Notes: generated by a model not told the origin, from the sequence alone. A stretch of DNA of 64,000 nucleotides from Candidatus Uhrbacteria bacterium (GCA_018664485.1 JABJOE010000006.1:7294-71293), one strand, 5' to 3'; positions 3,139 through 39,140 are shown, numbered from the stretch's first letter. Numbers and translations are program-made.

Positions 3139-4142
3139 AAAGCGATAATGTAAAAACTATTGATTAGCATCTGGAATGTCTGGAGGAAGTCAACGGTAAC
3201 CTCATCATCCAAATCATACGTGAAAGAATAGAAGAAACTGTCAGTAACCACGACCGATGTCCGCTCATCGCTACTCATATAGACCACATAGCCCTCCTTT
3301 GTAAGGAGTTCAATTGACATTGGGAAAGACGTTTCGATTGCAGGCGTTATAACTATAGAAAAGCTTGCATTTGTATTTGTGCTAACGACTACTTCTTGTA
3401 CTCCTTCGGCTGGATCTACCGCTTCGCTCACATCCCAGCCGGTTGGATGCGTAAATCTAAATACTTCGTCTGAAGACACAAACTCTTCCACGGCTCCGGT
3501 GTCCAAAAGCGTTGCCCCTGAAGTGCTCAATGGACTGTAACGATGGAAAACTTCATTACCATCTAGGAATGAATCACCGTCTGAATCTGGGTTTCGATCA
3601 TCTGTACCGTACAGATCTTCCTCAACATCTGTAAGGCCATCACTGTCGGTATCAACGCCAGGTCCCGGCTCTACAACATCTTCTGGGCGATCATCTTTTG
3701 AATCGCATACGTCACCCTTATCATCGTCGTCTATATCAGATTGGCTGGCGTTTGCATCTTCTGGACAGTTATCTTCACTGTCAATAATTCCATCTCCATC
3801 GATGTCGTCTGTCACCTCCTCTTCTTCTACGTTTAGAGATTGCACTACAAAATACCCAACCACAGCAAGTACAGTGATCAGAACTATTCCAACACCCAAA
3901 ATAATGAAAGGTGCCTTGCTTTTCTTTTTTGGCACAGGCTTTGGTGCAGGTTTCGGTTTTGGAACTGGTTTCGGCTTCGGCACAGGCTTAGGTGCTGGCT
4001 TTGGAAGTTCTTTCACCGTCGCCTTCTTCTGCGCGAATGATGCTGGCATTACATGAATTTCAACATCTGAAAGAAGCGACTTGCGCTCTTTCTCCTGCTT
4101 TGCTAGCTCTTCAGGTTTCATGTTTTTACCAGACTTCTTCAT
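3135..4142 (-). CDS. Membrane-anchored protein with a Pro/Lys-rich spacer and thrombospondin-type-3-like Ca-binding Asp repeats.
   Basis: 335 aa. PKPAPKPVPKPKPVPKPKP low-complexity segment, one TM helix (FIILGVGIVLITVLAVVGYFVV), then DGDGIIDSEDNCPED / DTDSDGLTDVEED / DSDGDSFLDGNEV DxDxDG repeats. Confidence 0.6.
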   Translation of the reverse strand: MKKSGKNMKPEELAKQEKERKSLLSDVEIHVMPASFAQKKATVKELPKPAPKPVPKPKPVPKPKPAPKPVPKKKSKAPFIILGVGIVLITVLAVVGYFVVQSLNVEEEEVTDDIDGDGIIDSEDNCPEDANASQSDIDDDDKGDVCDSKDDRPEDVVEPGPGVDTDSDGLTDVEEDLYGTDDRNPDSDGDSFLDGNEVFHRYSPLSTSGATLLDTGAVEEFVSSDEVFRFTHPTGWDVSEAVDPAEGVQEVVVSTNTNASFSIVITPAIETSFPMSIELLTKEGYVVYMSSDERTSVVVTDSFFYSFTYDLDDEVTVDFLQTFQMLINSFYIIAL

Positions 4143-6032: not shown

Positions 6033-9000
6033 TTACGGTTCGCAATACCTGAATCTCATATCATCAAGCGAGACCGTTCCACCGCTATCATTGTCATCAA
6101 ATGAAATTCGAATTGGAATCTCCTGTGAGTTCTCGCCGTCACACGCAAACCCTGCGGGCCACGGAATCTCTACGTCGTCCCCCTCTGTAACGTTTCCACT
6201 TACAGCCTCACCGTCAATTACGTACGTGAAACGAATCGATACGATTGAATTTACAATCTCTTCATAGATCTCCTCCAACTCATCGGCTGATGAACCGTTA
6301 TGAGCATAGTCAACATCATTGTCATCATTCGGGTTACCAGAAGACCAACATGCCATTTGATCGATCAAATCAAGATCAACATAATCAGCGGCACAAGTTT
6401 CAGATGTAGCCGCACGCGCTACTGGGATCTCGACTAATTCAAGCGCGAAGTCGGCGACAGACTCAGCTATAGACATAACTTTCCATTCCTTGATATTCCA
6501 GGAGATACGTACAGGTGAAATCCATGGAGAGTATAACGTCTCTGCTGGACAGTCGAACGGACAGTCCGCGTATGTCTCTCCCACATCACAACTCCCATCA
6601 TTATTACATGAAGACGTACCGGAACCACTACCTGGGTTACATGTAGCATCACAGCCACCGCATGTCGTTATGTCAGCTACACCCCCTTCAGCATAACAGT
6701 CATACGTAGACACGCCATAGTATCCCGAACAACACTCCCATGAAATAACGCAGCTACTACTACAGCTAGATATATCTGAGCCGGTATCACCATCACAAGT
6801 TTCACCGTCTGCAGTATTTGTATATTCGTCACCACACTCGGATTCCTGACAGTCGGTAGCAGGATGATCATCTTCATCAGCTTCTTCGTCATAATTACAG
6901 TCTGCAGTTTCCGTTCCGCCTGAATCACACTCCTCTTCGCCATTAATTACTCCATCTCCACAAACCGGAGAGGTACACTCGTTGGTACAATCATCTTCGT
7001 CTACATCATTTCCATCATCACACTGTTCATCTGCAACATCATCGACTACTCCGTTTCCACACAAGGAATCCATCCACTCCTCCTCGTCCATCCAACCATC
7101 CTCCGTTCGATAATCATCGCAGAATGCATCTTCTACTGGCGACACTTCACTGTCAGACCCTGAATATAGGGCGACTGTGTAAATCTCGACCCCGTCATCC
7201 TTTAGCTGACATGCCATGAGTGCCGGGTCGATCTGTGACGCACCACAACTCTCACAACTCCATAAACCATCCGTCATCAATACAACAATTTGACGATCAT
7301 CGGTGCTAGAATAAGTAGTAAACGCTGTCTGAGCAGCCTTAAGTCCGTAGTAAGTATAAGTACCACTGCGTGCAATGTATGAAGCGACCTCAGACTGTGC
7401 ATATACGCTATTGTCTGCATCATAGAAGAAGCCATCGTCGACATTTGAAGCGTATGTATATTCAACTTCCTCAACCGCTCCACACGTCTCCGTATCTGGA
7501 TCACAATCAGAGTCTTCCATATAGTTGGTGAATCCAATGAACCCAATTTCTACGCCACTACCGAGACCTTCAAAGATTCCGTCAACCGAAGTCTGTAGAG
7601 AGTCGATCGTCGTATCCATTCGAGTTTCACCTTCACATTCAACAGACTCATCCTCTTCACATGTTGAGTCATAATGACAGCTTGTACCGTCGTCAGCACA
7701 AGTACCATCCCAGACGTATGCCATTGATCCAGACATATCCGTTGAGAAGATAATCTTTGTGTCTGGAATATCGAATTCGTAATCAACGTCGGCAGTTAAC
7801 CTTGTAGCTACAGTACACGCTGGGAAATAGACAGTCGCTGAGTTTCCGTAAGTAAGCAATGTTCCACTGACATCAGCATCGTATGAAATCATTTCGATTT
7901 CATTACTTCGTCTTGCGCCCAGCTCGTTAGTCTTCATCAAGAGTTGGTCGTTCTCGTAGGTAAACGGACAAGTAGACTCGCAACCATCTGCACAACTCGG
8001 AAGAATACATTCGCCATCTCCGTCGTCGTCTTCGCAGCCACTATCATTAAGGCACATCAGCCCATTATTATCACCACCATTACAGACACCCACATTGGAA
8101 CATCCATAATATGCCAAACTGTCAGGCCCCACGATTACAGCACCTTCGTCTTCTCGATCACACATTCCATACACGTTACCCTCGGGATATAACGATCCGT
8201 CCAACTGAGCGTACCAATAAGGTAGGTCGGTTCCATCACAAACTTCTTCATCTTCTATTATTGTATCTCCACAAAATGCTCCGGAGTACGTTACTTGAAC
8301 ACATGAATCGTTACAGTAAGAACATGTTGAGTCGTATTGAGAATCGCAAACCACTCCATTATCTGACCCTTCATCACATTGCTCTTCGCCATCATAAAGA
8401 TATCCATCTCCACAAACATTTAACTGACACTCGGTAGTACAGTCATCTGTAGAGTCATCGTTTCCGTCGTCACACTCCTCACCATCATCAACAACTCCAT
8501 CTCCACAATCGGATGATGCCACACAGCTAACACCCTGCCAGAATGCCGTTGTAGACCAAGGACTATTCCATCCACAAGTCTCACCACCTTCACCGTCATC
8601 GGCACAAGTGATAGTTCTAGTTGTTGGGAATGTTGAAGTTGAGCATACTCCGTCGTCCGTTCCACAATATGAGTTAGAAGTACACGGATAACCGATCAGA
8701 CTTTCAGTACCGGCCAAACATACTGTTGTTATCTCACATGCCTCAGACCATGACGAAGAACTATCTCCACATACCGCGCTGTCGCAGTCGGCATCGTCTT
8801 CACAAGCAGCACCTTCGTCAGTACCACCTACACATAATTCACCATCCCATGAGTCACTATTTCCATCACATACCTCTCCCTCACCATCATCAACTTCTCC
8901 GTCTCCACAGAATGAAGCGGCTCCTGAACAATCCCAGGCACAACTGCTATTAGGGTTTGAATTGTATGTTGAGTTTAAGTCAGTACATGCTGAACCTCCG

Positions 9001-15000: not shown

Positions 15001-16385
15001 TCAACAGTTGAGCCGGCTCCATCGTCAAAATATACAGTACCTTCAACACTACCGAATCCGTCACCAGAGATAGTAACGAATGTTCCTTCAATTCCGTTAT
15101 CAGGTGACACGCTTTCAATTTCTGGATAGGACACACAAGTTCCTTCCAAACATGTACCCGACTCACAATCGCTATCTTCTTCACAACTTGAACCGTCACA
15201 AGACCCGCAATCCTCACCTCCACAATCCTCACCCTCTTCGTCTTCATCCTCTGTATCGTTGAAACAGTGAGCTGCAGTTGCCAAAATGCTGATTGAGTCA
15301 GTATCTGTGTTTCCTGCAATATCCGTCGCAGTCACTTCAAGCGTATATCTTGTTCCAGCCTCTAAATCTTCTGTAGAGTATGTCGTTTCAATAGTTACGT
15401 CCGACAAATCATCACCTTCAGCCGGAACACTATCAAACAGTACCTCTTCATCATCGTAGAAGTCAGCGGTTGCAACCTCGCTGTCATCTGTCGCTGTAAC
15501 CTGAACAAGAGTAGATGAATCTATTGAAATACGTTCACCGCTGTCTGGATATGTGAGTTCAACTTCAGGATCTTCAGTGTCTACTAATTCACCACTTGTG
15601 AAGCTTGAAGTACAACTATCATCCGAACATACGAGTGAGCTTCCTGAAGTACTTTCAATGTCATCACCAACCTCAACCGTGAATGCAGTATTTTCGTCGA
15701 AACAGTATCGATCATCGTTTGGCTCAGGGCATGCTGCGTCTGGTACAAACGTAATCTTGTTAGACGTAACGCTCAATGTTCCATCTACCTCTTCGCCAGT
15801 TTCATCATTTGTAATTGTAACGTTACCTGCGACCGTATCTTCATCAACTGATCGAGAGAAAGTAATTTGAACTTGAATATTTCTAATAACAACCTCGCCT
15901 TCTGGCGAGAAGTCGGTAACTGCAAAAGAAGTAACGCTCGATCCAGAACATCCTCCCAAACAGCTATCGCTACCGCTATCACTGCCAGAACCTGATCCCG
16001 ATCCACCACTTCCAGCTTCCAAAATAGACCCCAATATAAAGGATGTGATCGCAAATGAAAGCATTATAATGGTAAGTCCGACAATACCATTGAGCAATAT
16101 CTTTTTAGCGCTTTCAACCTTACTCGCATCACCACCGGCTGTCATCCAAACAAATCCACCCCATATAATAATGAGCACCGCAATGATTCCGAGCGTTCCT
16201 AAGAAAATTCGGATTATATTTGCAATGGTAACTTCCAGAGATTGGGTTGCAAGCCCTGACGCATCGCCTAACTCATCTAATGAGTCCTGTTGTGCATGCG
16301 TTACCTGCGGTATAGCCAAAAGCCCTCCCGTCATTATAAACAAGATGGCAAAGGCCGCGAATAAATTACGAAGTTTTGAGATCAT
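6033..16385 (-). CDS. Giant (3450 aa) cell-surface adhesin-like protein. Architecture: signal peptide plus two-helix membrane hairpin anchor, Gly-Ser linker, bacterial Ig-like domain, about 4 IPT/TIG-like domains, arrays of Myxococcus-type Cys-rich repeats, and a vWA domain with MIDAS.
   Basis: Single uninterrupted ORF. N-terminus MISKLRNLFAAFAILFIMTGGLLAIPQVTHA, then IIRIFLGTLGIIAVLIIIWGGFVWMTAGGDASKVESAKKILLNGIVGLTIIMLSFAITSFIL, then GSGGSGSGSGSDSGSDS. Repeated P..G..GT.VTI.G.GFG motifs (IPT/TIG). More than 15 copies of CGDG(V/S)(I/V)D.GE.CDDGN....DGC...C (Myxococcus cysteine-rich repeat). DMSGSM (DxSxS MIDAS) ...VVLMTDG (vWA) near nt 7180-7790. Confidence 0.85.
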   Translation of the reverse strand: MISKLRNLFAAFAILFIMTGGLLAIPQVTHAQQDSLDELGDASGLATQSLEVTIANIIRIFLGTLGIIAVLIIIWGGFVWMTAGGDASKVESAKKILLNGIVGLTIIMLSFAITSFILGSILEAGSGGSGSGSGSDSGSDSCLGGCSGSSVTSFAVTDFSPEGEVVIRNIQVQITFSRSVDEDTVAGNVTITNDETGEEVDGTLSVTSNKITFVPDAACPEPNDDRYCFDENTAFTVEVGDDIESTSGSSLVCSDDSCTSSFTSGELVDTEDPEVELTYPDSGERISIDSSTLVQVTATDDSEVATADFYDDEEVLFDSVPAEGDDLSDVTIETTYSTEDLEAGTRYTLEVTATDIAGNTDTDSISILATAAHCFNDTEDEDEEGEDCGGEDCGSCDGSSCEEDSDCESGTCLEGTCVSYPEIESVSPDNGIEGTFVTISGDGFGSVEGTVYFDDGAGSTVEATIPSCGDGWSDDEVIVEVPEGAGDGPITIVTRNDYEETTDDDNGAIIDDFDVNTTVRPNLCDISPNEAEVNDAFAIEGTNFGDSQSDSVITFTAEDEDETEAGSYTSWSATDVAATVPSVTVNDYYDVSITVDGVESNTVSFGVEDTDDDSPIISAIDPEEGGIGQYVTISGSGFGTSVGSVWFEHPTLGAAQGSIEFPDACSESFWSASEIVIIVPEEFSNEDDVEAGDYELYIEKRSGGESDAVDFEVTEDDPTPGICAIDPDDGESGDTVTIYGDNFGSSTGSIEFYDGSSASVEDDDWSNDEIVTSVPSDAVTGPVFITNNEGEDSNSSNFEIGADDEEDEEATVDGGYSWYFGTGSIPETPGIVVECSDDDISAVPNERFTDEVCVDAVIRATFTELMDEDFLTSEYITVEECADSSCEDVSTFTMDAPTITSSSTATSFTIDHSGFSTETRYLVTVSSDVESEEGVQMDSDVTWEFLTDDSSADCEIERVIVSPSSELLEEQGETTEYEALPVADCQVLSGATYAWTWSLDTSSYASLTEGICDDTSLNDSCAVAEALAEGESVVNAIEDDSGIGDDADLEIDYRDPYVTSYYPNCNTACVNSGIGASFNIDMDSSIQDTGMVTMYECSNELCVGLTQVDVTAGCTSSECEEFVLTITESGWDAQLTADTYFRVIISGDVESSSGVALTDTNYGDDFSWVFSTKDDESLCTVDRLEVSPENYTAEAIGETVEYFVQPYGQQDECSSTGQQLSAYSYDYEWSVPIDDVDVAEWTEINSSLFDVDLDGIAPGCTESCLAGGSEVYTAICGDGDIETGEDCDDGNVTNGDGCSSECLAEGTNSCSFTCASSGDSCSDDEDCAETCEIADDSEEGVCSVSGDVCAIDADCTYADTCDAVGSGCCGDGVVDVDSSYAGEECDDSNITDGDGCSSSCINEGSAAAGATCGNGSVGHSDSVGGEDCDDGGTSSGDGCSAICLNEGSTALTSVAAECGDGVIDTPYETCDDWGVEDEDGCSSICLREGADGDYGDCGDNAVDQGAYGEGEDCDGTEGCSDECLWEGASTSYASPSVCGDGEAGTGEFESCEDPTYDATGGDGIIDPLQLVEIMTSAAEQVDTDSRLAETLIEVTYEDVSDSTALYLSCVAEVDSDCESDYGPADNSCCMARPEVSLYPNGSDACRNAAIYGLFSEKMDLGSFFYTDLDDGEDIQNMYLVLDIGSGSCPETHTSIAHAETATVGNSWLARAFFRVGALFGTGVVQAQSSGDCAVEITSVSQSLEESGDYKVLFHYDTVLEALSDYTIYVVGDDLSDTDVDKEGALSFYGVEMESDHVDFTTYDELCLMDVVEVTDSDEDSPGVYTQVSEDHDYTAAGFSYQTGIKQQIEPISSVYDWTWSTWSSDDAGEEILAQQSESSSTDGTADSNYAAAGENGEVNITATATITVDVQSETEGESHSGTTSATAMVCENPWPAITDFPFIDDSTGTGNGARAGIGWMNFSTYYCMDSGAETEDDDLPEVDVVLTEDTETDDVIKEYFFRLLADGESTGDAIGIRIASNSEYLSPMAWYTEQGFAGSPSEIAVAGGYKAVQDGRTTYVSFPNRTSSVLYSDMFVISYNSGASSETVEVYNQLISNLEFNTNFDDTALCMDSGGSYTDDTCVSDQDCDWANSERCDDQAAKVMRDMTRLTDLTDLAAMIEDYGDVNGYCSDTTSQTCTSDSQCPDSEECVPATPQLESGTFVASLSSSAWSSWNEQLRSELGEEPPSDPLNAYVNCGEDGHYTDYDADTCVNQTNGEYLCPNRETNVYHYRAYGKGGYYMGAELEFHGTPWTEDLDQDTSDSYNFQVYAKTGSGDGFASPSYFCANTRWGDETICGDGVIGGTEICEIGQEMDAATCDSDASVDSDGDGDATNDIDGSISQTCASDCLGGEDLDGATCEAFECGNGVIDTGETCDDGSYNGRYGFCDNDCTYASTFSCGDGSLAGGELCDCGSSSVSGLNYGGSACTDLNSTYNSNPNSSCAWDCSGAASFCGDGEVDDGEGEVCDGNSDSWDGELCVGGTDEGAACEDDADCDSAVCGDSSSSWSEACEITTVCLAGTESLIGYPCTSNSYCGTDDGVCSTSTFPTTRTITCADDGEGGETCGWNSPWSTTAFWQGVSCVASSDCGDGVVDDGEECDDGNDDSTDDCTTECQLNVCGDGYLYDGEEQCDEGSDNGVVCDSQYDSTCSYCNDSCVQVTYSGAFCGDTIIEDEEVCDGTDLPYWYAQLDGSLYPEGNVYGMCDREDEGAVIVGPDSLAYYGCSNVGVCNGGDNNGLMCLNDSGCEDDDGDGECILPSCADGCESTCPFTYENDQLLMKTNELGARRSNEIEMISYDADVSGTLLTYGNSATVYFPACTVATRLTADVDYEFDIPDTKIIFSTDMSGSMAYVWDGTCADDGTSCHYDSTCEEDESVECEGETRMDTTIDSLQTSVDGIFEGLGSGVEIGFIGFTNYMEDSDCDPDTETCGAVEEVEYTYASNVDDGFFYDADNSVYAQSEVASYIARSGTYTYYGLKAAQTAFTTYSSTDDRQIVVLMTDGLWSCESCGASQIDPALMACQLKDDGVEIYTVALYSGSDSEVSPVEDAFCDDYRTEDGWMDEEEWMDSLCGNGVVDDVADEQCDDGNDVDEDDCTNECTSPVCGDGVINGEEECDSGGTETADCNYDEEADEDDHPATDCQESECGDEYTNTADGETCDGDTGSDISSCSSSCVISWECCSGYYGVSTYDCYAEGGVADITTCGGCDATCNPGSGSGTSSCNNDGSCDVGETYADCPFDCPAETLYSPWISPVRISWNIKEWKVMSIAESVADFALELVEIPVARAATSETCAADYVDLDLIDQMACWSSGNPNDDNDVDYAHNGSSADELEEIYEEIVNSIVSIRFTYVIDGEAVSGNVTEGDDVEIPWPAGFACDGENSQEIPIRISFDDNDSGGTVSLDDMRFRYCEP

Positions 16386-16423
16386 GATATTAGGGAGGAG
16401 TTGGAATGAAAATTACATTTAAG

Positions 16424-18319
16424 CTAACTACTGAAGTAGGAACAGTCAGTTGATTGAGCCTCACCGTTACAACAGAAAGGTTCTGTGTCACTCGTTCCAC
16501 AAGAACCACCCGAATCATCCGGCCCTTCTCCTGGAACGTAACAGTTTTGATATTGATTCCTCACTCCTTCCGTTACATCCACTGAGTAAAGATAGCTAGT
16601 TCCGTCGGTGTAACACTGCAGATCAGTATTACATGCCTCGCCCGACTCACAATCACCGTCTACAGCACAACTCTCACCCGTAAGTGCATCGTCGGTGGAA
16701 GCGAGGAATACTCCGTGCCGGATACCTGCCTGAGTTGCAACTGCAGTCTGCTCGGACGATACAACTTCATCGCCGTACTCATCGATTGAGTCAGTGCTAA
16801 CTACGTACCACATTTCGTGTGACGGGTTTGGTGTCGCGACAATATATTCACTCGACATTGTGTTACTCATCATGATGGAGTCAAACAAAACCGTAATCTC
16901 CTGATCCAACTCGACATTCTCCTCTAAAATATCTGGACCAATTGATTCAATCTCCGGCGCTTCCAAATTTACGTCGTCAGATGTTGAAAATGACCAGTCA
17001 TAGTCGTCTCCAGCTTCACCATCACCGTCACCGTCCAATGCATTTGCTGATACATCAACGATTCCGTCATATGGTGTCTCGGCCTGCGGCGCCGCATCTT
17101 CGTCAACGGTAGCGGCAATAACATCGACCGTAATATCTTCAAGTCCAGGCAAACAATAAATGAGTTCACCACACGAGTTTTCTCCACATTCATCGTCGGT
17201 AGTGTACGTAACAGTTTTGTAACCATTTGAAATAGCGTACTCACCAGTTAGCGGAACTGAGTCACCAATATGCGTTTGGATATTGCTAAATCCACTACCA
17301 CTCTCACGAGTTCCGGTTGACACTGTCGGATCCACAGCTTCTGAGAATGTAATTTGCACAACAATGTTTCTGTCATACTCGTCACCTGCTTCAGGCGACA
17401 CGCTCACAACATATGGCGGCGTTAGGTCAATTTCAGTTCCAACTTCGAATGACCACTCATACCCGCCAGTGTTTACCACCTGGTCGCCATCCTTATCTCC
17501 AACATCCTCCGAAATGAATACCGTGTACGAAGTATCTTCTGTTGAAGATCCAAGATAATCCTCTGGTGAGAAGCTAAACGTCTTTAGATCTTCCGTAAAC
17601 GTCACGCTCACTTCTTCAGATGTCAGGATACCTTCTTCTCCGTCCTCAGATCGATAAATCAAAATGTTGTCTGTATTTAATGTTGTCGCAACCGTATCGT
17701 CACTCGTATCATCCGGTGTACCGTTGGTGTCGTAGCCATCGATAAGCCCCTCAATGTCCATCGCACTCTTAAACGTAACTAGAATATTGATATTTCTCGC
17801 AGCACCAGTCGCATTGCGCGCTGGGAAGTGGTCGCGGATTCCACCCTGCCCAAGAGATCCAGAACTTCGCTCGATTGATGCCGAGCTATCACTTCCGCTT
17901 CCAGAACCGCTTCCGCCACCTCCACCGATCAATGCACCCGTAAGCGCGCTAATGATAAAAGCTGTGATCGCATAAGATGCCATAACTATCACAAGTCCGA
18001 CAACTCCGTTGATCATCCACTTCTTTGCTTTTTCAACTTTGTCAGCATCACCACCGGCTGTCATCCAAAGGAAACCAGCGTAGATGATAATGATCAGAAG
18101 AACGATTCCAAGTGCACTCAAGAATACACTTACTAACGTCCCTATAACTTCTGGCAGGCTTGCGGTACTAAGACCTGACGCACCTCCGGCTACAGCGAGC
18201 TCCGACGATTGCGCAAGAACAGCGCTCGGAATAAACGCAAAAATACCGGTGACCAGAGTGATCCCGAATAGGAGAACAAGCGCTTTTGATAAACGCATCG
18301 TTATTTGATTCACATGCAT
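16424..18319 (-). CDS. Paralog (631 aa) of the giant surface protein, with the same N-terminal anchor module and Ig-like domain but a short Cys-containing ectodomain.
   Basis: N-terminus MRLSKALVLLFGITLVTGIFAFIPSAVLA, then ...YAGFLWMTAGGDADKVEKAKKWMINGVVGLVIVMASYAITAFII, then GGGGGSGSGSGSDSS. A 25-nt identical stretch (18045-18069 vs 16126-16150) encodes the WMTAGGDA loop. The TPPYVVSVSPEAGDEYDRNIVVQITFSEAVD bacterial Ig-like motif matches the giant's ISPEGEVVIRNIQVQITFSRSVD. Confidence 0.8.
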   Translation of the reverse strand: MHVNQITMRLSKALVLLFGITLVTGIFAFIPSAVLAQSSELAVAGGASGLSTASLPEVIGTLVSVFLSALGIVLLIIIIYAGFLWMTAGGDADKVEKAKKWMINGVVGLVIVMASYAITAFIISALTGALIGGGGGSGSGSGSDSSASIERSSGSLGQGGIRDHFPARNATGAARNINILVTFKSAMDIEGLIDGYDTNGTPDDTSDDTVATTLNTDNILIYRSEDGEEGILTSEEVSVTFTEDLKTFSFSPEDYLGSSTEDTSYTVFISEDVGDKDGDQVVNTGGYEWSFEVGTEIDLTPPYVVSVSPEAGDEYDRNIVVQITFSEAVDPTVSTGTRESGSGFSNIQTHIGDSVPLTGEYAISNGYKTVTYTTDDECGENSCGELIYCLPGLEDITVDVIAATVDEDAAPQAETPYDGIVDVSANALDGDGDGEAGDDYDWSFSTSDDVNLEAPEIESIGPDILEENVELDQEITVLFDSIMMSNTMSSEYIVATPNPSHEMWYVVSTDSIDEYGDEVVSSEQTAVATQAGIRHGVFLASTDDALTGESCAVDGDCESGEACNTDLQCYTDGTSYLYSVDVTEGVRNQYQNCYVPGEGPDDSGGSCGTSDTEPFCCNGEAQSTDCSYFSS

Positions 18320-18465
18320 GTTGCTATATAGGTTGTACGAAGTTGTTCCCTCGCACCTACATTATAAAGGAACGCGAGTATGAACGCGAACGGGGTGTGG
18401 AATAAACTCAACACCCGTCCAACCACACAGATCAGACGGGTGAGAATATATAGATTTTTTAAAAA

Positions 18466-18837
18466 CTATTTTGTTCGCTTTCGAACAGCGCCATGAATAA
18501 TTCCAGCGATTACAAGGTCGATCAACACGAACCAAAGGAATGAATCTCCGCTAATTCCCCAGTACGAAATTTCAGCGATCCATGAATAAAGTCCGATCGC
18601 CGCGTCAAGCAACACGAGTACAAAGAAGAACCATAGAAGATCCGACTTGCTATGTTTTCCAACTGCCTGCCAGTTTAAAAGCGCAAGCGCCGCTGTACCA
18701 ACGAGTGCTACAGCTGAAATCCATAACTCAACTTCGAATGCACCAATAGTAGCTGGCGCCTGAAACGCTAAACGCATTGCGTGTAGCGCTGCCACGGAAG
18801 TGAAAACCGCCGTGTTAACGATATGTATTTTTTTCAT
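18466..18837 (-). CDS. Hypothetical small integral membrane protein (about 4 TM helices).
   Basis: 123 aa, highly hydrophobic segments. No recognisable family. Confidence 0.5.
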   Translation of the reverse strand: MKKIHIVNTAVFTSVAALHAMRLAFQAPATIGAFEVELWISAVALVGTAALALLNWQAVGKHSKSDLLWFFFVLVLLDAAIGLYSWIAEISYWGISGDSFLWFVLIDLVIAGIIHGAVRKRTK

Positions 18838-22759: not shown

Positions 22760-24820
22760 ATGACGCTTCGTATTTCATCAATTTCGCTGCTATTTGCAGC
22801 TTTTATACTCGCACCCTTCAGTCAGGCGCTTGCCATTGCAGGCTCAGACTCCTGGTATGACACCTATTCTGACGGTACAAATTTCGTATATTACGGGATA
22901 ACTTCAGATGACGATACTATCTATGCAGTTGGATACACAGGTGCCATTGCAACTTCAACAAATGGAGATGATTGGGATTTGCAAAATATAACAACCGAAA
23001 GCCTCTACGACGTAGCGGAAAGTGACTACGGAATAGTTGCTGTCGGAGGGGGTGGAGAAATTTATACATCAATAGATAGCGGAGACTCGTGGCAAAGCCA
23101 AACATCTCCGACTACAGCTGACTTATTGGCTGTTGAATTCCGTGGTAACAAAGGATATGCAGCCGGAAGCAGTGGAATATTAATCACAACGATTGACGGT
23201 GGTCAAAGTTGGTCAACGGCTCTTGCGACCTCATCAAACAGTTTTCACGGTATGCATGTTGGTGTTGGTGAATCATGGATGGTCGGATCATCTGGAACTA
23301 TCAATAACAACGGAGCATTCGCAGGATTATTCGGAGCACAAACAAGCGGCGTTGGAAATAACTTATTCGATGTATATTTCCAAGATGATGATTTGACAGG
23401 TTGGGTAGTTGGAACAACTGGAACACTTCTTGCAACTACGGACGGTGGGTCAACGTGGTCAGCTGCCACATCTGGTACCTCTGAGCACCTATACTATATT
23501 GTTGGCGACGATGAAGATGATGACCACTTCTACATCGTGGGGGAAAATATTCTCATGGAAACGACAGACGCTGGTGCAAGTTTCGACACAGTAACTTTCA
23601 GTACCTTGTCTTTATACCAGATGATTGCCGGTACAGTTTTTGAAGACAAGATGTACCTCGCCGGACTCGATTCAGGCGGAGGCGTCGTAGTAACTACGGA
23701 TACAAACGCACCAACAGCGCCCGCTATTATTGGCGTAGACCCAACCTCCCCAACCGCTGAAACTGACATTACCTTGAGCTGGCATACAACTTCAGACGAT
23801 GAAACAAGCATTGACGAGTATCTTGTATACCTAGACGGTGTATATGTAGATTCACCAATTGTATTTCTTTCCGGTAGCTACGAATTCACAGGCCTCGCTG
23901 AAGGAAGCTACGAACTTGGAGTGAGCGCTAAAGATGATGCCGGCAACGAAAGCGCGATCAGTACAGAAACGGTTGTAGTTGATCAGTCAGGTCCATCTAT
24001 TACAAGCGAGAGTCCAACGGAAGCTACTGTCGACACAGCGGTTAGTGTATCTGCAACAGTTACAGACTCACTATCAACTATCGACGGTTGTGCCTTGTAC
24101 ATCGATTCAGTATCGAGCGGAAGCATGAGTGCAAGCGGAAGCACATACTCACTAAGCCAGACATTCACTTCTACCGGTGATTACAGTGCATACGTTGCAT
24201 GTGACGACACTGTTGGAAACATCTCGGTTGGATCTACCTGGACAATCACCGTAAGTGAAGATAGCGGATCAGGTTCTGGTTCGGGTGACAGTGGCTCAGG
24301 AGATTCCGGCGATAGCGGGGACTCTGATGATAGTGGAGACGTTGAAGAGTCAGCAGATACAAGCACACTTATTAAGATGCAGTGTGAAGGTGGCGAAGCT
24401 GCAGACGATCCATGTAAAGCTGTTTACTACTACGGATCAGACGAAATGCGTCACGCATTTACAAACGAAAAAGTTTACTTCACTTGGTACGAAGACTTCG
24501 ATGATGTGATCGTTGTAACAGACGAATTCATGTCTTCAATTAGTCTCGGACCAAATGTTACTTATCATCCAGGAACCAAGATGGTTAAGTTCCTGACTGT
24601 AAACACGGTGTACGTTGTGGAGCAAGGTGGTGTGCTTCGTGGAATTACAAGCGAAGATGTTGCAACTGACCTTTACGGATCAGACTGGAATACAAAGATT
24701 GATGATATCTCAGATGCATTCTTTGGAAACTATTCCTTTGGAGATGATGTGGACGACGCATCCGATTATGACGTCGATGATGCGTTAGACTCCGTAAGCT
24801 CTCTCGACGACAACTTCTAA
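22760..24820 (+). CDS. Secreted protein with BNR/Asp-box (Ycf48/sortilin-like) beta-propeller repeats, an Ig/FN3-like middle, a Gly-Ser-Asp linker and a C-terminal domain of unknown function.
   Basis: 686 aa. Signal peptide MTLRISSISLLFAAFILAPFSQALA. Repeated S/TxDxGxxW motifs (TSIDSGDSWQS, TTIDGGQSWST, TTDGGSTWSA, TTDAGASF). Linker GSGSGSGDSGSGDSGDSGDSDDSGD. Confidence 0.75.
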   Translation: MTLRISSISLLFAAFILAPFSQALAIAGSDSWYDTYSDGTNFVYYGITSDDDTIYAVGYTGAIATSTNGDDWDLQNITTESLYDVAESDYGIVAVGGGGEIYTSIDSGDSWQSQTSPTTADLLAVEFRGNKGYAAGSSGILITTIDGGQSWSTALATSSNSFHGMHVGVGESWMVGSSGTINNNGAFAGLFGAQTSGVGNNLFDVYFQDDDLTGWVVGTTGTLLATTDGGSTWSAATSGTSEHLYYIVGDDEDDDHFYIVGENILMETTDAGASFDTVTFSTLSLYQMIAGTVFEDKMYLAGLDSGGGVVVTTDTNAPTAPAIIGVDPTSPTAETDITLSWHTTSDDETSIDEYLVYLDGVYVDSPIVFLSGSYEFTGLAEGSYELGVSAKDDAGNESAISTETVVVDQSGPSITSESPTEATVDTAVSVSATVTDSLSTIDGCALYIDSVSSGSMSASGSTYSLSQTFTSTGDYSAYVACDDTVGNISVGSTWTITVSEDSGSGSGSGDSGSGDSGDSGDSDDSGDVEESADTSTLIKMQCEGGEAADDPCKAVYYYGSDEMRHAFTNEKVYFTWYEDFDDVIVVTDEFMSSISLGPNVTYHPGTKMVKFLTVNTVYVVEQGGVLRGITSEDVATDLYGSDWNTKIDDISDAFFGNYSFGDDVDDASDYDVDDALDSVSSLDDNF

Positions 24821-34314: not shown

Positions 34315-36660
34315 ATGAAACGTCTCCTTATTGTAGAGTCGCCTACCAAGGCCAAAACAATCAAAAAGTTCCTCGGGTCAGATTACGAGGTAACTTCTTC
34401 TTTTGGGCATATTCGTGATCTTCCTCGAAAGGAGATGGGAGTAGACATGGATAACAAATTTGAGCCTACATACGTTGTTCCAGACAATAAGAAGAAACGA
34501 GTAGCTGATCTAAAACGAGCCGCAAAAGGAGTAGACGAAATCTATCTAGCGACTGATGAAGACCGGGAAGGAGAAGCGATCGCTTGGCATATTGCTGAGA
34601 TTTTGAAAATCAAAACAGAAGACATTAAGCGCATCACATTCCACGAAATTACAAAGCACGCGATTGAGCACGCACTGACAGAAGCTAAGGGGCTGGCGAT
34701 GCCTGTTGTTGAAGCCCAGCAAACTCGCCGCATCCTAGACCGTCTCGTTGGATACGAGTTGTCTCCATTCCTATGGAGCAAGGTACGTCGTGGTCTTTCT
34801 GCTGGTCGTGTGCAATCTGTATGTGTACGCCTTGTTGTAGAACGTGAACGTGAACGAAATGCTTTTGACCAAGATGAGTACTGGACTATAGAAGGACTAT
34901 TTGAGACAGGTACGGCTGTCATGGAAGGAAAGCTTAATGCTGTCGATGGTGAAAAGTTGAAGAAACTTTCAATCGGGACTGAAGCTGCTGCGGCAAAGAT
35001 AATTGACGACCTTAAAGGTGCTAGTTTTACAGTTGATGCAATCACAAAAAAGCAGGCATCTCGAAAACCACCTAAACCTCTCACAACATCTTCCCTTCAG
35101 CAGGAAGCGAACAACAAACTTGGTTTCTCTGCAAAACAAACAATGACGCTAGCGCAGAAACTATATGAAACAGGTCGCATCACTTACATGCGTACCGACT
35201 CTTTGAACCTAGCTGACAAATTCCTAGGCGAAGCACAGAGCTACATCAAAGCAACTTTTGGAGATAACTACGCAACCGGTGCGCAAACATACAAAACAAA
35301 AAAGAAAGGGGCACAGGAAGCTCATGAAGCTATCCGCCCAACAGACCCAAGCTTGCATCCGGACAAACTACAAGCTGAGCTTGAAGCTGGTCAGTGGAAA
35401 CTTTACAACCTTATTTGGCGCCGAACGCTCGCAACACAATTCCCTCCAGCAAAGCTCGAAAGTACTGCAATCGACCTTCTTGCAAAGACATATAACTTCC
35501 GAGCAAATGGTAGCGTTATCGTGTTCGACGGATTCATGAAGATCTATAAGAGCGCAAAGGAAACCATCCTGCCAGAGCTTAAAAAAGGTGATGATGTAAA
35601 AGCTCAGTCTATTACGCCAGAGCAGCACTTCACACAGCCACCAGGTCGCTATTCAGACGCGACACTTGTCAAAGTACTTGAAGAGCATGGTATTGGTCGG
35701 CCGTCTACCTACGCCCCAACAATCAGTACGGTGATTGATCGTGGTTACGTAGATCGTGATGACAATAAAAAGCTCTTCCCTACTGACACGGCATATATCG
35801 TGACAGATCTTTTAGTGGAGCACTTTCCAAATATCGTAAACCTGGAATTTACTGCAACAATGGAACGAACGCTCGATGAAATTGCTGAGGGAACCGTTCA
35901 CCGTGTTCCAACGCTCGAAGCATTCTACGGACCATTCCACAAAAACCTACAAAGCAAAACAAAAGAAATTACATATGCTGACGTTGTAAAAGAACGTGAG
36001 CTTGGAGCCGACCCTGAATCAGGAAAAATGATCGTTGTAAAAACCGGACGTTTCGGTCCATACGTTCAACTTGGAGAATGGTCTGAGGAAGATAGAAAAG
36101 AAAAGATCAACAAGCCGAAGATGGCCTCTCTCATGAAAGACATGGATATGGAGACCGTGAAGCTTGAAGAAGTTCTAAAACTCTTTACCCTTCCACGTAC
36201 TGTCGGACAATTGGAAGATGGTACACCAATCACTGCACAAACCGGACCTTACGGACCATATCTGAAAGCCGGGAAAACAAATGCATCAATCGAAGAACCC
36301 CAGCTATTTAGTCTCGATGAAAAAGAAGCACGAGAGCTCATTATCGAAACTGCAAAAAAGAAAGCGGAGATGATGAAACCTTTGGCTGAACTTGGAGCAG
36401 ATACCGTGAGTGGCGAACCAATCGTCGTTAAAAACGGTCGTTTTGGCCCGTACGTAACTGACGGAAAAACAAACGCATCTATCTCAAAAAAGATTGACCC
36501 CATGACGGTCACACTTGAGATGGCGACTGAAATGCTTATCAAAAAACGTGAGCGGCAAGCAAAGAAAGGTGGTGCTAAAAAAGGAGAACCGAAAGCCAAA
36601 CCACTAAAGAAGAAAACTACAAAGAAAAAATCTACAGCAAAGAAAAAGAAGAAGGCCTAA
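34315..36660 (+). CDS. topA: DNA topoisomerase I with a Lys-rich C-terminal tail instead of Zn-ribbon repeats.
   Basis: 781 aa. Toprim N-terminus MKRLLIVESPTKAKTIKKFLG...EVTSSFGHIRDL. Active-site Tyr region ...RITYMRTDS... C-terminus KKGGAKKGEPKAKPLKKKTTKKKSTAKKKKKA. Confidence 0.9.
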   Translation: MKRLLIVESPTKAKTIKKFLGSDYEVTSSFGHIRDLPRKEMGVDMDNKFEPTYVVPDNKKKRVADLKRAAKGVDEIYLATDEDREGEAIAWHIAEILKIKTEDIKRITFHEITKHAIEHALTEAKGLAMPVVEAQQTRRILDRLVGYELSPFLWSKVRRGLSAGRVQSVCVRLVVERERERNAFDQDEYWTIEGLFETGTAVMEGKLNAVDGEKLKKLSIGTEAAAAKIIDDLKGASFTVDAITKKQASRKPPKPLTTSSLQQEANNKLGFSAKQTMTLAQKLYETGRITYMRTDSLNLADKFLGEAQSYIKATFGDNYATGAQTYKTKKKGAQEAHEAIRPTDPSLHPDKLQAELEAGQWKLYNLIWRRTLATQFPPAKLESTAIDLLAKTYNFRANGSVIVFDGFMKIYKSAKETILPELKKGDDVKAQSITPEQHFTQPPGRYSDATLVKVLEEHGIGRPSTYAPTISTVIDRGYVDRDDNKKLFPTDTAYIVTDLLVEHFPNIVNLEFTATMERTLDEIAEGTVHRVPTLEAFYGPFHKNLQSKTKEITYADVVKERELGADPESGKMIVVKTGRFGPYVQLGEWSEEDRKEKINKPKMASLMKDMDMETVKLEEVLKLFTLPRTVGQLEDGTPITAQTGPYGPYLKAGKTNASIEEPQLFSLDEKEARELIIETAKKKAEMMKPLAELGADTVSGEPIVVKNGRFGPYVTDGKTNASISKKIDPMTVTLEMATEMLIKKRERQAKKGGAKKGEPKAKPLKKKTTKKKSTAKKKKKA

Positions 36661-36690
36661 GCGGCCTTCTTCTTTTTTGCAGGTTTTTTA
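36640..36690. terminator. Bidirectional terminator shared by the convergent topA and 36657..39140 genes.
   Basis: aagaaggcc-taagc-ggccttctt perfect hairpin flanked by an A-run and a T-run. Both stop codons lie within or next to it. Confidence 0.5.
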
Positions 36691-39140
36691 TCAACTTTCT
36701 TTACCGGTTTCTTCTTAGGCTTCTTACCCCATCTCGCATTACGAGCGTCATCGCGTGACTCTTTCGCCCCCTTACCGTCATCGCGTATCTCTTTCGCCTC
36801 CTTACCTTCACCAGATACGCTACCCAACAGATCAGCGCCAATGTCGGTGGCACCGCCCAACAGATCAGCACCTATATCAGCAATATCTTCCTGTACATTG
36901 CCCCAGTTTTTATCTATTTCTTCATTACCCTTTGAAACAGCTGTAATACTTTTATCTTGTTGACCTACAAGCTCCAGAGCGCCTTCTTTCAAGAAATTCC
37001 ACATGGACTTAGCAGCCATTCTAGTAGAGTTCAATCCAATTTTTACAGAATTATAGGCAGCACTCAAACCTACTCTTGCCCCTTTAACACCGCTCTTGAG
37101 AACAAATCCTGAACCCGCTAAACCAACTGTAGCTACCGCCGGAATCCTACCTACAGCCTTAACAGCCGTCTCTTCACCTGATTCATTTAGTTTTTTTAAT
37201 TTATCATAATGAATAGACGCTTCCAACTGCTTAATTGCGCCTCGCGGATCTTGCTCATATAAATCCCTACGAGATTCCATCCATGACTCTGCATCATCCT
37301 CCGACATACCCGACTCAATCATCATAGCAACCGCCATAACGCCAAGAGCCTCAAGCCGTTTAGGTCCCGTAATATCTCCAAGTTCACGAATATTCTCATC
37401 ATTACTCTCTTTTTCCAATGCCGCATCACGATCCTCTTTACTTAATCCACGCATCCTCTCTCTGAAATTTTGAAGTCTATCAGCGTCAATACCACGAGCC
37501 TCCTTACGATCGGTCAACTCCATCATCTTTAATTCAAATTTGCTATCTTCATCATCTGGGTTAAAAAGTGAACGTTCACCACCCCTCTCAATAACACCGG
37601 GTGCAACCTCATCAAGTCCAAGCGCCAAAGGAATATCCCCTCCGGACGTACCATCAGGAGATTGTAAATATGAAGGCACCTCAGGCTCCTCATCACTGGT
37701 CAATGCTTCCCAATCATCTGCAAGATCTTGTTCATCAAGTGAGAAACTCTCGGCCTCAGGCTTAGCAACGGGTTTCTCACTATTCCTCTCTAACGCCTCT
37801 ATCCGGTCAAGTGCCTCTTGCTCGTTATCAGGGCTGGTATTTACTTCCAACGCATTCCATTGATCAAGGATATCGTTCCCACTCGAATTAGTGGAAGTGC
37901 TAGCAACGGCCACATCGCCCGAACCGGTCGATGGTTCATCTTCATCTATGTCGTCTATTGTGTCATCACCACCCTCGATATCATCCATTGTCTCATAATC
38001 TTCGTCATCAAGAGAATCCTGAGATAACCCACCTTCCTCACCATCTAAAATATCATCATTAATCTCCTCGCTAGGTGAGGGATCAGTTCCTTCATCTATA
38101 TCATCCAATATATCGTCATTTGATGTTTCCCCACCTTCAATATCATCGCCCTCATCGTCAAGGATGTCATCATTTGAAAACTCGCCATTACCTACCGACA
38201 CTTCAGTGCCACTAGTAACCGCCTCGGCAATGTCAGAAGCCGCTTCGCCTCCCGTAGGTACTGACGATTCAACGCCAGAATCAACCGGCTCGCCACTAGG
38301 ATTCGATATTTCATTCATACTCTCAATTTTTGCAGCTAAATCAGCTCCCGCGCTAACTGCTTCGGCGACTATCTCAGCTGTACCTGAAGCTGCCGCTACC
38401 TCAACGACTCCCGCGCCAAGAACCTCACTTGCGACGTCCGCGCCAGCCCCGCCACCTTCAACTACAATACCCTCCTTAGCTCCACTAGTCCCCGATCCCA
38501 AAACACTGTCGATCACAACATCTGCGCCCGTCTCGATATTTTCTATACTAGCGCTAGGTTCCGGAGTGGCATCAACACCTTTATTCCTACCAGTAATCCT
38601 TACGGGAGGATCTTCCGATCCCGCAGGAGCTCTATTCTCTTCTCGTTGTGCTACGGCTACATGACCTTCATCCTCTCGCAAACCCTTAACAGAATCTTTA
38701 CGATGAGCCTCTTGAACATTAGAACCACGATCAGAATCTTGAGCCATCACGTCAGCTACATCCTGGTTACTATCCGCCCCCTCTTCCTGCTCTTCTTGCG
38801 CGTCAAGCTTAACAAACTCTGCCTCGCGAGCCTCGCCAATTCTATCTTTCTCATCCAATTCGTCTGAGCTTCTCGTATCCTCGTAAACACCTTTCATAAG
38901 GTCTTCATGAGAAGGAGGATTGCCCCAGTTTTCAACAATTTTTCCTTTTATTTTTCTTACCACAACTAAATCAACAGCTTTCGATGCGGCGACCTCCTCT
39001 CCAAGCACAGCAAGCTGTTCACTTATTTGCTTCTCTTGCTCAGCAAGCTCGCCAGCGCTAACCTCAGGTTGCTCTCTACCACCCTCAATTTTTTTCACCG
39101 CTTCAATTGTACCGTCTTCAGATCCTTCTACCATATACAT
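36657..39140 (-). CDS. Large (827 aa) highly acidic, low-complexity (probably disordered) protein with NDDILDD repeats and a Lys-rich C-terminal tail.
   Basis: No TM or signal peptide. Three SNDDILDDEGDDIEGG-like repeats. Ala/Gly/Ser/Glu-rich throughout. C-terminus WGKKPKKKPVKKVDKKPAKKKKAA. No catalytic motif seen. Confidence 0.6.
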   Translation of the reverse strand: MYMVEGSEDGTIEAVKKIEGGREQPEVSAGELAEQEKQISEQLAVLGEEVAASKAVDLVVVRKIKGKIVENWGNPPSHEDLMKGVYEDTRSSDELDEKDRIGEAREAEFVKLDAQEEQEEGADSNQDVADVMAQDSDRGSNVQEAHRKDSVKGLREDEGHVAVAQREENRAPAGSEDPPVRITGRNKGVDATPEPSASIENIETGADVVIDSVLGSGTSGAKEGIVVEGGGAGADVASEVLGAGVVEVAAASGTAEIVAEAVSAGADLAAKIESMNEISNPSGEPVDSGVESSVPTGGEAASDIAEAVTSGTEVSVGNGEFSNDDILDDEGDDIEGGETSNDDILDDIDEGTDPSPSEEINDDILDGEEGGLSQDSLDDEDYETMDDIEGGDDTIDDIDEDEPSTGSGDVAVASTSTNSSGNDILDQWNALEVNTSPDNEQEALDRIEALERNSEKPVAKPEAESFSLDEQDLADDWEALTSDEEPEVPSYLQSPDGTSGGDIPLALGLDEVAPGVIERGGERSLFNPDDEDSKFELKMMELTDRKEARGIDADRLQNFRERMRGLSKEDRDAALEKESNDENIRELGDITGPKRLEALGVMAVAMMIESGMSEDDAESWMESRRDLYEQDPRGAIKQLEASIHYDKLKKLNESGEETAVKAVGRIPAVATVGLAGSGFVLKSGVKGARVGLSAAYNSVKIGLNSTRMAAKSMWNFLKEGALELVGQQDKSITAVSKGNEEIDKNWGNVQEDIADIGADLLGGATDIGADLLGSVSGEGKEAKEIRDDGKGAKESRDDARNARWGKKPKKKPVKKVDKKPAKKKKAA

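Follow-up and report, generated by a model that had tools for sequence, protein, structure and literature searches.

Two adjacent minus-strand genes in a 64,000-nt stretch of Candidatus Uhrbacteria bacterium DNA (GCA_018664485.1, JABJOE010000006.1:7294-71293; the whole stretch is called the window) encode proteins of 3450 and 631 amino acids (aa), named giant and medium here. In each of them the N-terminal 120-residue unit is, judged by sequence profiles, a genuine member of T4SS_pilin (PF18895), a family of pilins of type IV secretion systems (T4SSs), and this membrane hairpin is fused to a large ectodomain. The VirB2-type pilins described so far are small subunits that stand alone. The medium and giant genes form a conserved cassette of ABY1-type Patescibacteria, often followed by genes for proteins with thrombospondin type 3 (TSP3) repeats.

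The N-terminal 140 aa of the two proteins matched PF18895 with 43.2 and 42.1 bits, well over the curated gathering cut-off of 26.6, and the match spans the whole 71-position model; the full-length proteins also score above that cut-off (32.9 and 39.4 bits). The family-invariant columns G66, G77, F78, W80, G85, A93 and G103 are all present in giant and medium, and PF18895 was matched by every one of 49 relatives (49/49). The original prediction had described an invariant loop common to the two paralogs, WMTAGGDA.KVE.AKK in the consensus of both proteins. That loop is indeed found in both, but it is not special to them: across 49 aligned family members the motif has an invariant G, F, W and G and a conservation of 90% or more at M, T, A and G, so the loop WMTAGG... 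is a signature of the whole PF18895 family. A small stand-alone form (about 110-150 aa, in tandem arrays) is typical, though not formally defining, of PF18895, and at 3450 and 631 aa the window proteins depart from it.

Comparison with other pilin families points in the same direction. TrbC/VirB2 (PF04956) is the next pilin family, with scores of 15.9 and 19.3 bits that lie below its threshold of 27.9 (E-values, E, of 0.015 and 0.0014); it was matched at E<=0.01 by 20 of the 49 close family members, at best with E 7.9e-08. When the family profile was compared by hhalign with one built from 24 genuine Agrobacterium/Rhizobium-type VirB2 sequences, the two aligned over 82 columns with P 4.9e-4, at a reported probability of only 32%, and the A|Q signal-peptidase site, the W-M motif closing helix 1, and helix 2 were in register. 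The best NCBIfam match is a pilin-like family of Mycoplasma integrative and conjugative elements (ICEs), NF045849 (Mbov_0395/MMCAP2_0565), which was reached with E 1e-6 to 1e-8 and 28-35 bits, below its cut-off of 40. As to other kinds of anchor, no class III G|F(M)xxxE motif of type IV (PilA-type) pilins was found and no such Pfam family matched, the proteins having two helices after an AxA-type signal peptide. There is also no C-terminal membrane anchor, as sortase LPXTG-type proteins would have, since Kyte-Doolittle hydropathy places no hydrophobic segment past the N-terminal 135 residues of giant or medium. The proposal that the module resembles VirB2/TrbC rather than PilA or LPXTG proteins is thus supported by these profiles, which by sequence find more than generic hairpins.

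The module is also much more widespread than the two paralogs from which it was first described. A search with both modules returned 385 proteins. Nearly all of the top 120 come from Patescibacteria, are annotated with PF18895 and measure 112-224 aa, and some bear the name pilin or VirB2 in their sources. In an exhaustive search with a hidden Markov model (HMM), 72,597 cluster representatives passed E<=1e-3, of which 25,108 also passed E<=1e-10. Within the 64-kb window there is no third copy, and elsewhere in the same genome there is an array of five stand-alone PF18895 pilins of 113-135 aa (L009).

The anatomy of the module is the same in both proteins. Hydropathy gives exactly three hydrophobic segments in each, at residues 5-29, 50-86 and 95-125 of giant and 8-38, 54-92 and 101-132 of medium. 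AlphaFold2 models, built with the family alignments, show a signal-peptide helix (residues 2-20) and long helices at 50-81 and 87-124 in giant, and a signal-peptide helix with long helices at 55-87 and 92-126 in medium; the predicted local distance difference test (pLDDT) score is as high as 97. The signal peptides would be cleaved at THA|QQ in giant and at VLA|QS in medium, and the A-Q pair at the predicted site is at least 90% conserved in the family alignment. The loops between the last two hydrophobic segments, MTAGGDASKVESAKK in giant and MTAGGDADKVEKAKK in medium, carry a net positive charge. Hydropathy and models therefore agree with the signal peptide, paired hydrophobic helices and charged loop of the original prediction. 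The (GS)n linker that it placed after the hairpin is likewise present as a low-complexity stretch of glycine, serine and aspartate (G/S/D), at residues 125-141 of giant and, by sequence, 132-146 of medium (GGGGGSGSGSGSDSS). Residues 1-120 of giant are encoded by 16026-16385, and the predicted second occurrence of the module, at 17960-18319, does encode residues 1-120 of the 631-aa open reading frame (ORF); the two modules share 48% protein identity (E 1e-28). A similar linker, SGSGSGSGDSGSGDSGDSGDSDD, occurs in a 686-aa secreted BNR/Ycf48-like protein at 22760-24820 on the plus strand of the window, and the G/S/D spacer seems to be a general trait of the organism's surface proteins, wider than the pilin fusions.

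The two hairpins are similar at the DNA level as well. An exact match confirmed that 16126-16150 and 18045-18069 are identical over 25 nt, and this identity is more than chance: with the amino acids given and the codon usage of both genes, agreement at the five synonymous third positions has a probability of ~0.0055. When 50 related pairs of other genomes were examined, 6% of the within-genome pairs shared an identical run of 25 nt or more over the motif, against 0 of 3000 cross-genome medium-giant comparisons. Over the whole module, identical residues use the same codon in 48.7% of cases within a genome, compared with 41.8% expected from codon usage and 34.7% between genomes, and hairpin protein identity is 63% within one genome against 50% for medium-giant pairs in general. 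Because of this excess of shared codons, 25-nt runs and protein identity within genomes, neighbouring hairpins are taken to evolve partly in concert, through gene conversion, co-evolution, or both. We also considered the 25-nt stretch as a separate DNA or RNA element and rejected this; it codes for the family motif, with a modest gene-conversion signal.

The pairing of the two genes is itself conserved. The medium protein has at least 340 full-length homologues, in general of 580-650 aa with 47-70% identity, almost all of which carry PF18895+PF13205; among the 120 that were listed, lengths run from 566 to 650 aa and identities from 46 to 100% over almost the whole protein, and all but three bear that annotation. 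The exact 631-aa protein is encoded on three independently assembled contigs, one of 986,404 bp and two shorter ones from other samples. In four homologue loci the order is constant, the medium gene coming first and then a giant gene whose product of 3085-3465 aa has PF18895 at its N-terminus and also contains Big_5, TIG and DUF4215; the pair is present in L003-L008, TSP3_bac proteins of about 295 aa come next in L005-L008, and around these loci are housekeeping genes in partly conserved order (signal peptidase, HisRS, YqeY). When GTDB species representatives were scanned for the pattern, 592 matches were confirmed; the best 80 loci among them were kept and all their ORFs rescanned with the family HMM. 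This sample is biased to relatives of the query, so its counts are not prevalence estimates. Of the 80 loci, 57 have the medium and giant pair, with medium proteins of about 460-1070 aa and giant ones of about 1400-3470 aa, several of them truncated where the contig stops; another 3 have one large fused gene, and 20 have arrays of 3-12 short pilins. In 13 loci the giant orthologue can be aligned to 85-95% of the window protein, and in most to its first ~2000 residues; of 39 complete loci, 21 have TSP3 genes after the giant gene.

Named taxa with the cassette are Uhr-, Magasanik-, Falkow-, Komeili-, Buchanan- and Kuenenbacteria, and the three of them found in a published survey belong to class ABY1 (PMC12102498). 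Many cassette-bearing GTDB records are titled 'uncultured Gammaproteobacteria bacterium' (L016, L023-L025, L027, L030 and others) and one 'Candidatus Kapaibacterium'; these look like mislabelled records of metagenome-assembled genomes.

Table 1. Features of the medium and giant genes and of their surroundings, in window coordinates.
Feature	Position	Strand	Description and basis
Giant gene, 3450 aa	6033..16385	-	Signal peptide, PF18895 hairpin, G/S/D linker, Big_5/Big_7/TIG immunoglobulin (Ig)-like domains, DUF4215-type Cys-rich repeats, DMSGSM resembling a metal ion-dependent adhesion site (MIDAS); ORF, Pfam, composition, motif
Predicted cleavable signal peptide, giant	16293..16385	-	Residues 1-31, THA|QQ; segment 5-29, AlphaFold2 helix 2-20, family A-Q conservation, alignment to VirB2 processing site
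Pilin hairpin, giant	16014..16238	-	Helix 1 residues 50-81, loop TAGGDASKVESAKK, helix 2 residues 87-124; PF18895 match residues 47-117 (16035-16247)
25-nt identical stretch, giant	16126..16150		Encodes (V/L)WMTAGGDA, family signature
G/S/D low-complexity linker, giant	15963..16013	-	GSGGSGSGSGSDSGSDS, residues 125-141
MIDAS-like DMSGSM motif, giant	7722-7739	-	Residue 2883; motif search
Intergenic spacer, 38 nt	16386..16423	-	No terminator-like site between medium and giant genes
Medium gene, 631 aa	16424..18319	-	Signal peptide, PF18895 hairpin, linker, tandem Ig-like (Big_5) ectodomain, Cys-rich tail; ORF, Pfam, AlphaFold2
Predicted signal peptide, medium	18212..18319	-	Residues 1-36, VLA|QS; AlphaFold2 and hydropathy
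Pilin hairpin, medium	17942..18157	-	Helix 55-87, loop AGGDADKVEKAKK, helix 92-126; PF18895 match residues 52-121
25-nt identical stretch, medium	18045..18069		Exact match to 16126-16150
G/S/D linker, medium, disordered	17876..17941	-	About residues 127-148, pLDDT below 50 (AlphaFold2)
Tandem Ig-like ectodomain, medium	16535..17872	-	Residues 150-595, all-beta, mostly pLDDT above 90 (AlphaFold2); Foldseek, invariant columns
Conserved Cys-rich C-terminal tail, medium	16427..16558	-	NQYQNC...CCNG...C, residues 588-631
Three downstream genes, 314, 243 and 335 aa	3135..5852	-	Single-pass membrane proteins, acidic regions, TSP3 calcium-binding repeats; Pfam and sequence

With regard to gene linkage, the medium gene lies directly upstream of the giant gene on the minus strand (Table 1), and the short spacer between them is consistent with one transcription unit. 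A terminator-like hairpin with a 13-bp stem at 18412-18442 (minus strand), between the medium gene and a 123-aa gene, suggests that the medium gene starts its own transcription unit. The 123-aa gene, at 18466-18837 on the minus strand, encodes a multi-pass membrane protein of no Pfam family, 123-124 aa long in the two loci that have it next to medium; its counterpart in a 68%-identical relative (L003, 9556-9930) is also directly upstream of the medium gene, and the gene is absent from the more distant loci L005 and L007. Read on the minus strand, the spacer before the giant ATG contains ...CTCCTCCC..., the complement of a Shine-Dalgarno sequence, and no canonical ribosome-binding site for the giant gene is visible there. 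The giant start codon is backed by homologues beginning MILKLRNLF (P0001). The two fused proteins end in ...MRFRYCEP and ...DCSYFSS.

An adhesin role for the fused proteins is suggested by their domain content, which in giant comprises Big_5, Big_7, four TIG stretches and DUF4215-type cysteine-rich repeats by Pfam, together with the MIDAS-like DMSGSM motif; the last may mark a divergent von Willebrand A domain missed by Pfam. Giant is strongly acidic and rich in cysteine (21.7% D+E, 2.1% K+R, 5.2% Cys). For the medium ectodomain, the best PDB matches found by Foldseek are the surface-layer (S-layer) protein SbsC and the bacterial Ig-like (BIg) domains of L,D-transpeptidases (E about 1e-8). The three genes downstream of giant look like part of the cassette, because TSP3 genes come after the giant gene in many related loci, and the cassette proteins look envelope-directed and calcium-dependent. 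Besides their acidic stretches and TSP3 repeats, the products of these three genes have proline-rich cytoplasmic heads.

A link to stand-alone pilins, and through them to a T4SS, is plausible by homology and co-occurrence. Beyond the window's genome, pair and array loci are both present in four other genomes (L022/L076, L029/L088, L042/L087, L085/L049), and three cassette-bearing genomes, two with the pair and one with giant only, are listed as ABY1 and VirB4-positive (Table S1 of PMC12102498). Signature residues (G62, Y71, G73, F74, W76, M77, T78, G81, A89, K90, G99 and others) occur in the fused modules at a frequency at least as high as in stand-alone pilins, with a mean top-residue frequency of 0.61-0.64 in fused hairpins against 0.52 in stand-alone ones, in a sample biased to query relatives. 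Since these residues are kept at the same or a higher frequency, our data argue that the fused hairpins have not decayed into a generic anchor.

The pilin loci have features of their own. An SBP_bac_1 solute-binding gene stands immediately before the pilin array in the window's genome (L009, 5288-9596) and in L049 (7130-11558), and unannotated ORFs of similar size (about 460-495 aa) lie upstream of the arrays in L039, L052, L087 and L088. The family also includes 'polypilins' (P0361, P0367, P0372), single polypeptides of 2 to 17 tandem T4SS_pilin hairpins and up to 1775 aa; P0367 has an AHA|Q signal-peptidase-like site before its second module, which hints that it may be cut into separate pilins.

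How such a hairpin might serve a very large protein can be sketched from known pilins. The pilins of F and T pili have both termini on the outside and turn their loop to the lumen or cytoplasm, a topology that permits fusion at the C-terminus. From the positive-inside rule and the known topology of VirB2 and TraA, we infer that the fused proteins are N-out/C-out, with the loop inside. The long signal peptide would direct the protein to Sec and would be cut at AxA|Q, a position that aligns to the VirB2 processing site. Helix 1 would then run inward through the membrane, leaving the lysine-rich loop WMTAGG(D/N)..K..AKK on the cytoplasmic face, and helix 2 would go back out, serving as an export signal for all downstream sequence. 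The G/S/D linker and the whole ectodomain would thereby end up outside a single membrane. As with VirB2 protomers, the hairpin would act both as an anchor and as a module for lateral association, tying medium to giant and perhaps also to the stand-alone pilins encoded elsewhere in the genome, and it probably oligomerises the ectodomains on the cell surface. In our estimate there is a probability of roughly 60% that the hairpin anchors and laterally associates the acidic ectodomains in this manner, as a calcium-dependent surface attachment complex on a presumably host-dependent cell.

Several observations weigh against this surface complex. None of the 30 other window proteins scanned matches VirB4, VirB6, VirD4 or another T4SS Pfam family, and no T4SS genes are found among the Pfam-annotated neighbours of the related cassettes L003-L008. 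In nine pilin-array loci, no large ORF contains a Walker A motif, and nine large ORFs from six array loci are without a T4SS Pfam match, one being a solute-binding protein and two resembling polynucleotide phosphorylase. A draft Uhrbacteria genome listed as VirB4-negative nevertheless has two VirB2 matches side by side (PMC12102498), and may be a case of the cassette without a T4SS. The medium ectodomain is unusually conserved (mean column identity of 52% in a 63-sequence alignment of homologues, with 71 invariant columns that include eight cysteines), which is more in keeping with a part of a structure or machine than with an adhesin that varies. Finally, a Foldseek search of the PDB with the hairpin model gave no match at E<=0.001, the best (E 0.53) and its neighbours being generic helical hairpins such as ATP synthase c, CnrX and CHMP4B; a two-helix hairpin is too simple for a fold search to discriminate, and the pilin assignment is accordingly one supported by sequence profiles and not by fold. 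As for its setting, the window is ordinary chromosome (FtsA, YbeY, diacylglycerol kinase, HisRS, TopA, Der, RelA/SpoT, ParAB, SecY, DprA and others). An 827-aa ORF at 36657-39140 (minus strand), between topA and relA/spoT, has a VirB4-like size and no Pfam match even at E<=0.1, and nothing supports its being VirB4.

Alternatively, the fused proteins may be pulled out of the membrane and incorporated into an extracellular VirB2-type fibre that consists for the most part of stand-alone pilins, as its tip, its cap or sparse lateral subunits, and the adhesin would then be borne by the fibre. The undiminished family signatures of the fused hairpins, the pilin arrays in the same genomes and the presence of VirB4 in the ABY1 cassette genomes that were checked would all suit such a fibre, as would the outward C-terminus of known conjugative pili. 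No pilus of the PF18895 family has been visualised, however, and the cassette was never beside T4SS genes in the loci examined; an ectodomain of 500 or 3300 aa on every subunit is sterically implausible, which would leave only rare incorporation, and the pair seems to be kept in the VirB4-negative draft genome. We therefore regard incorporation into a fibre as possible but unlikely. It has a certain appeal in that no PrgB-like adhesin was found in Patescibacteria T4SSs (PMC12102498), so that the role is vacant. The fused proteins of ABY1-type Patescibacteria could then be the first known 'modular VirB2 pilins', giant adhesins covalently joined to pilin subunits that co-assemble with stand-alone pilins in a T4SS-dependent fibre or platform and supply the missing adhesin, an idea that we put forward only tentatively.

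In a further scenario the hairpin is a transient export device, and the linker is cut after translocation so that the ectodomains are released as an S-layer-like coat or as free secreted proteins. A long disordered G/S/D linker directly after helix 2, the match of the medium ectodomain to SbsC, and the AxA|Q-like sites between modules of the tandem P0367, which suggest processing in the family, could be read this way. Yet giant and medium have no AxA|Q-like site after helix 2, and a plain signal peptide would do for secretion, whereas the strict conservation of its signature across 57 loci speaks for a function that the hairpin keeps; release of the ectodomains thus appears quite improbable. 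That the module is not real at all, but a chance likeness of a generic transmembrane hairpin, or that the long ORFs are fusions produced by assembly or gene calling, might be argued from the generic Foldseek results and from a PDB sequence-profile search with the family alignment, in which only designed 'Pizza' repeat proteins appeared, through six weak repeated AGxxWxTxxG matches that we rejected as spurious. A chance likeness is difficult to reconcile with the Pfam score and the complete signature motif. A fused-ORF artefact was rejected on the many independent full-length homologues, given that the same architecture, in uninterrupted ORFs, recurs in at least 340 proteins and in 57 loci of independent assemblies, and that the exact 631-aa protein was assembled independently three times. 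We consider this last explanation extremely improbable, and an anchored, laterally associated surface complex remains our preferred reading of the cassette.

The occurrence of a VirB2-type hairpin as the N-terminal module of proteins of ~600 aa and of more than 3000 aa, in many species, extends the role of this module to the anchoring or assembly of huge ectodomains. The cassette is also a concrete candidate for a host-attachment apparatus of ABY1 bacteria, none of which has been cultured. There is a practical consequence for pilin censuses, in which fused proteins would count as ordinary VirB2 pilins: the survey of T4SSs in Patescibacteria chose PF18895 matches by HMM coverage, counted them as VirB2 and listed no protein sizes, and a bias is therefore likely. 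Two adjacent matches, genes 552/553 of one Uhrbacteria genome, are entered there just as VirB2 (PMC12102498). Automatic annotation already records the domain pair, one homologue having the JGI name 'Type IV secretion system pilin/Bacterial Ig-like domain'.

Among known systems, the modular type IV pilins PilB and PilC of Streptococcus sanguinis follow a similar logic, with an N-terminal pilin module and C-terminal adhesin modules. They differ from the window fusions in their unrelated fold and machinery (a single N-terminal helix and a prepilin peptidase) and in their much smaller passengers. The TrbC/VirB2 pilins (VirB2 of A. tumefaciens, TrbC of RP4, TraA of F) share the long signal peptide cut before Gln, the two helices, the short basic loop and the W-M motif closing helix 1, whereas the window proteins fall below the PF04956 threshold, come from monoderm-type organisms, bear very large fusions at the C-terminus and are encoded without virB genes next to them. 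Mbov_0395/MMCAP2_0565 of Mycoplasma ICEs likewise form an 80-aa hairpin in wall-less or monoderm bacteria, but they are small stand-alone proteins, and the window match to their family is under its curated cut-off.

The closest relatives are the VirB2-like pilins of Patescibacteria themselves. A monoderm-type T4SS with pilins has emerged in this group as a requirement for growth as epibionts (PMC10633639, PMC12857230), the stand-alone arrays having been shown to be essential in one cultured species; Ca. Southlakia epibionticum has an essential six-gene pilin array in its T4SS locus (PMC10633639; surveyed in PMC12102498). These pilins, like the window proteins, match PF18895 above threshold and have a signal peptide, a two-helix hairpin and the signature [YW][AG]GF[LV]WMTAGG..K..AK. 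They are, however, stand-alone proteins of 110-150 aa in tandem arrays, often beside virB4, whereas giant and medium have C-terminal extensions of about 3300 and 500 aa, lie in a housekeeping neighbourhood and form a fixed two-gene cassette. The Pam pili of bacteria of the candidate phyla radiation (CPR; PamA/PamB) are also CPR-specific surface structures with Ig-like domains and Sec export, but their pilins have plain signal peptides, lack a VirB2-type hairpin and are assembled with the help of membrane-anchored chaperones through donor-strand exchange, and they are found chiefly in Saccharimonadia and Microgenomatia (PMC13278184). In the literature on CPR bacteria we found no description of the cassette or of pilin hairpins fused to large ectodomains, the nearest subjects being stand-alone pilin arrays, Pam pili and unspecified 'giant proteins' in Vampirococcus. 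Thus the module family and the stand-alone arrays of Patescibacteria were known, and what appears to be new is the fusion of this hairpin to large surface proteins in a conserved cassette.

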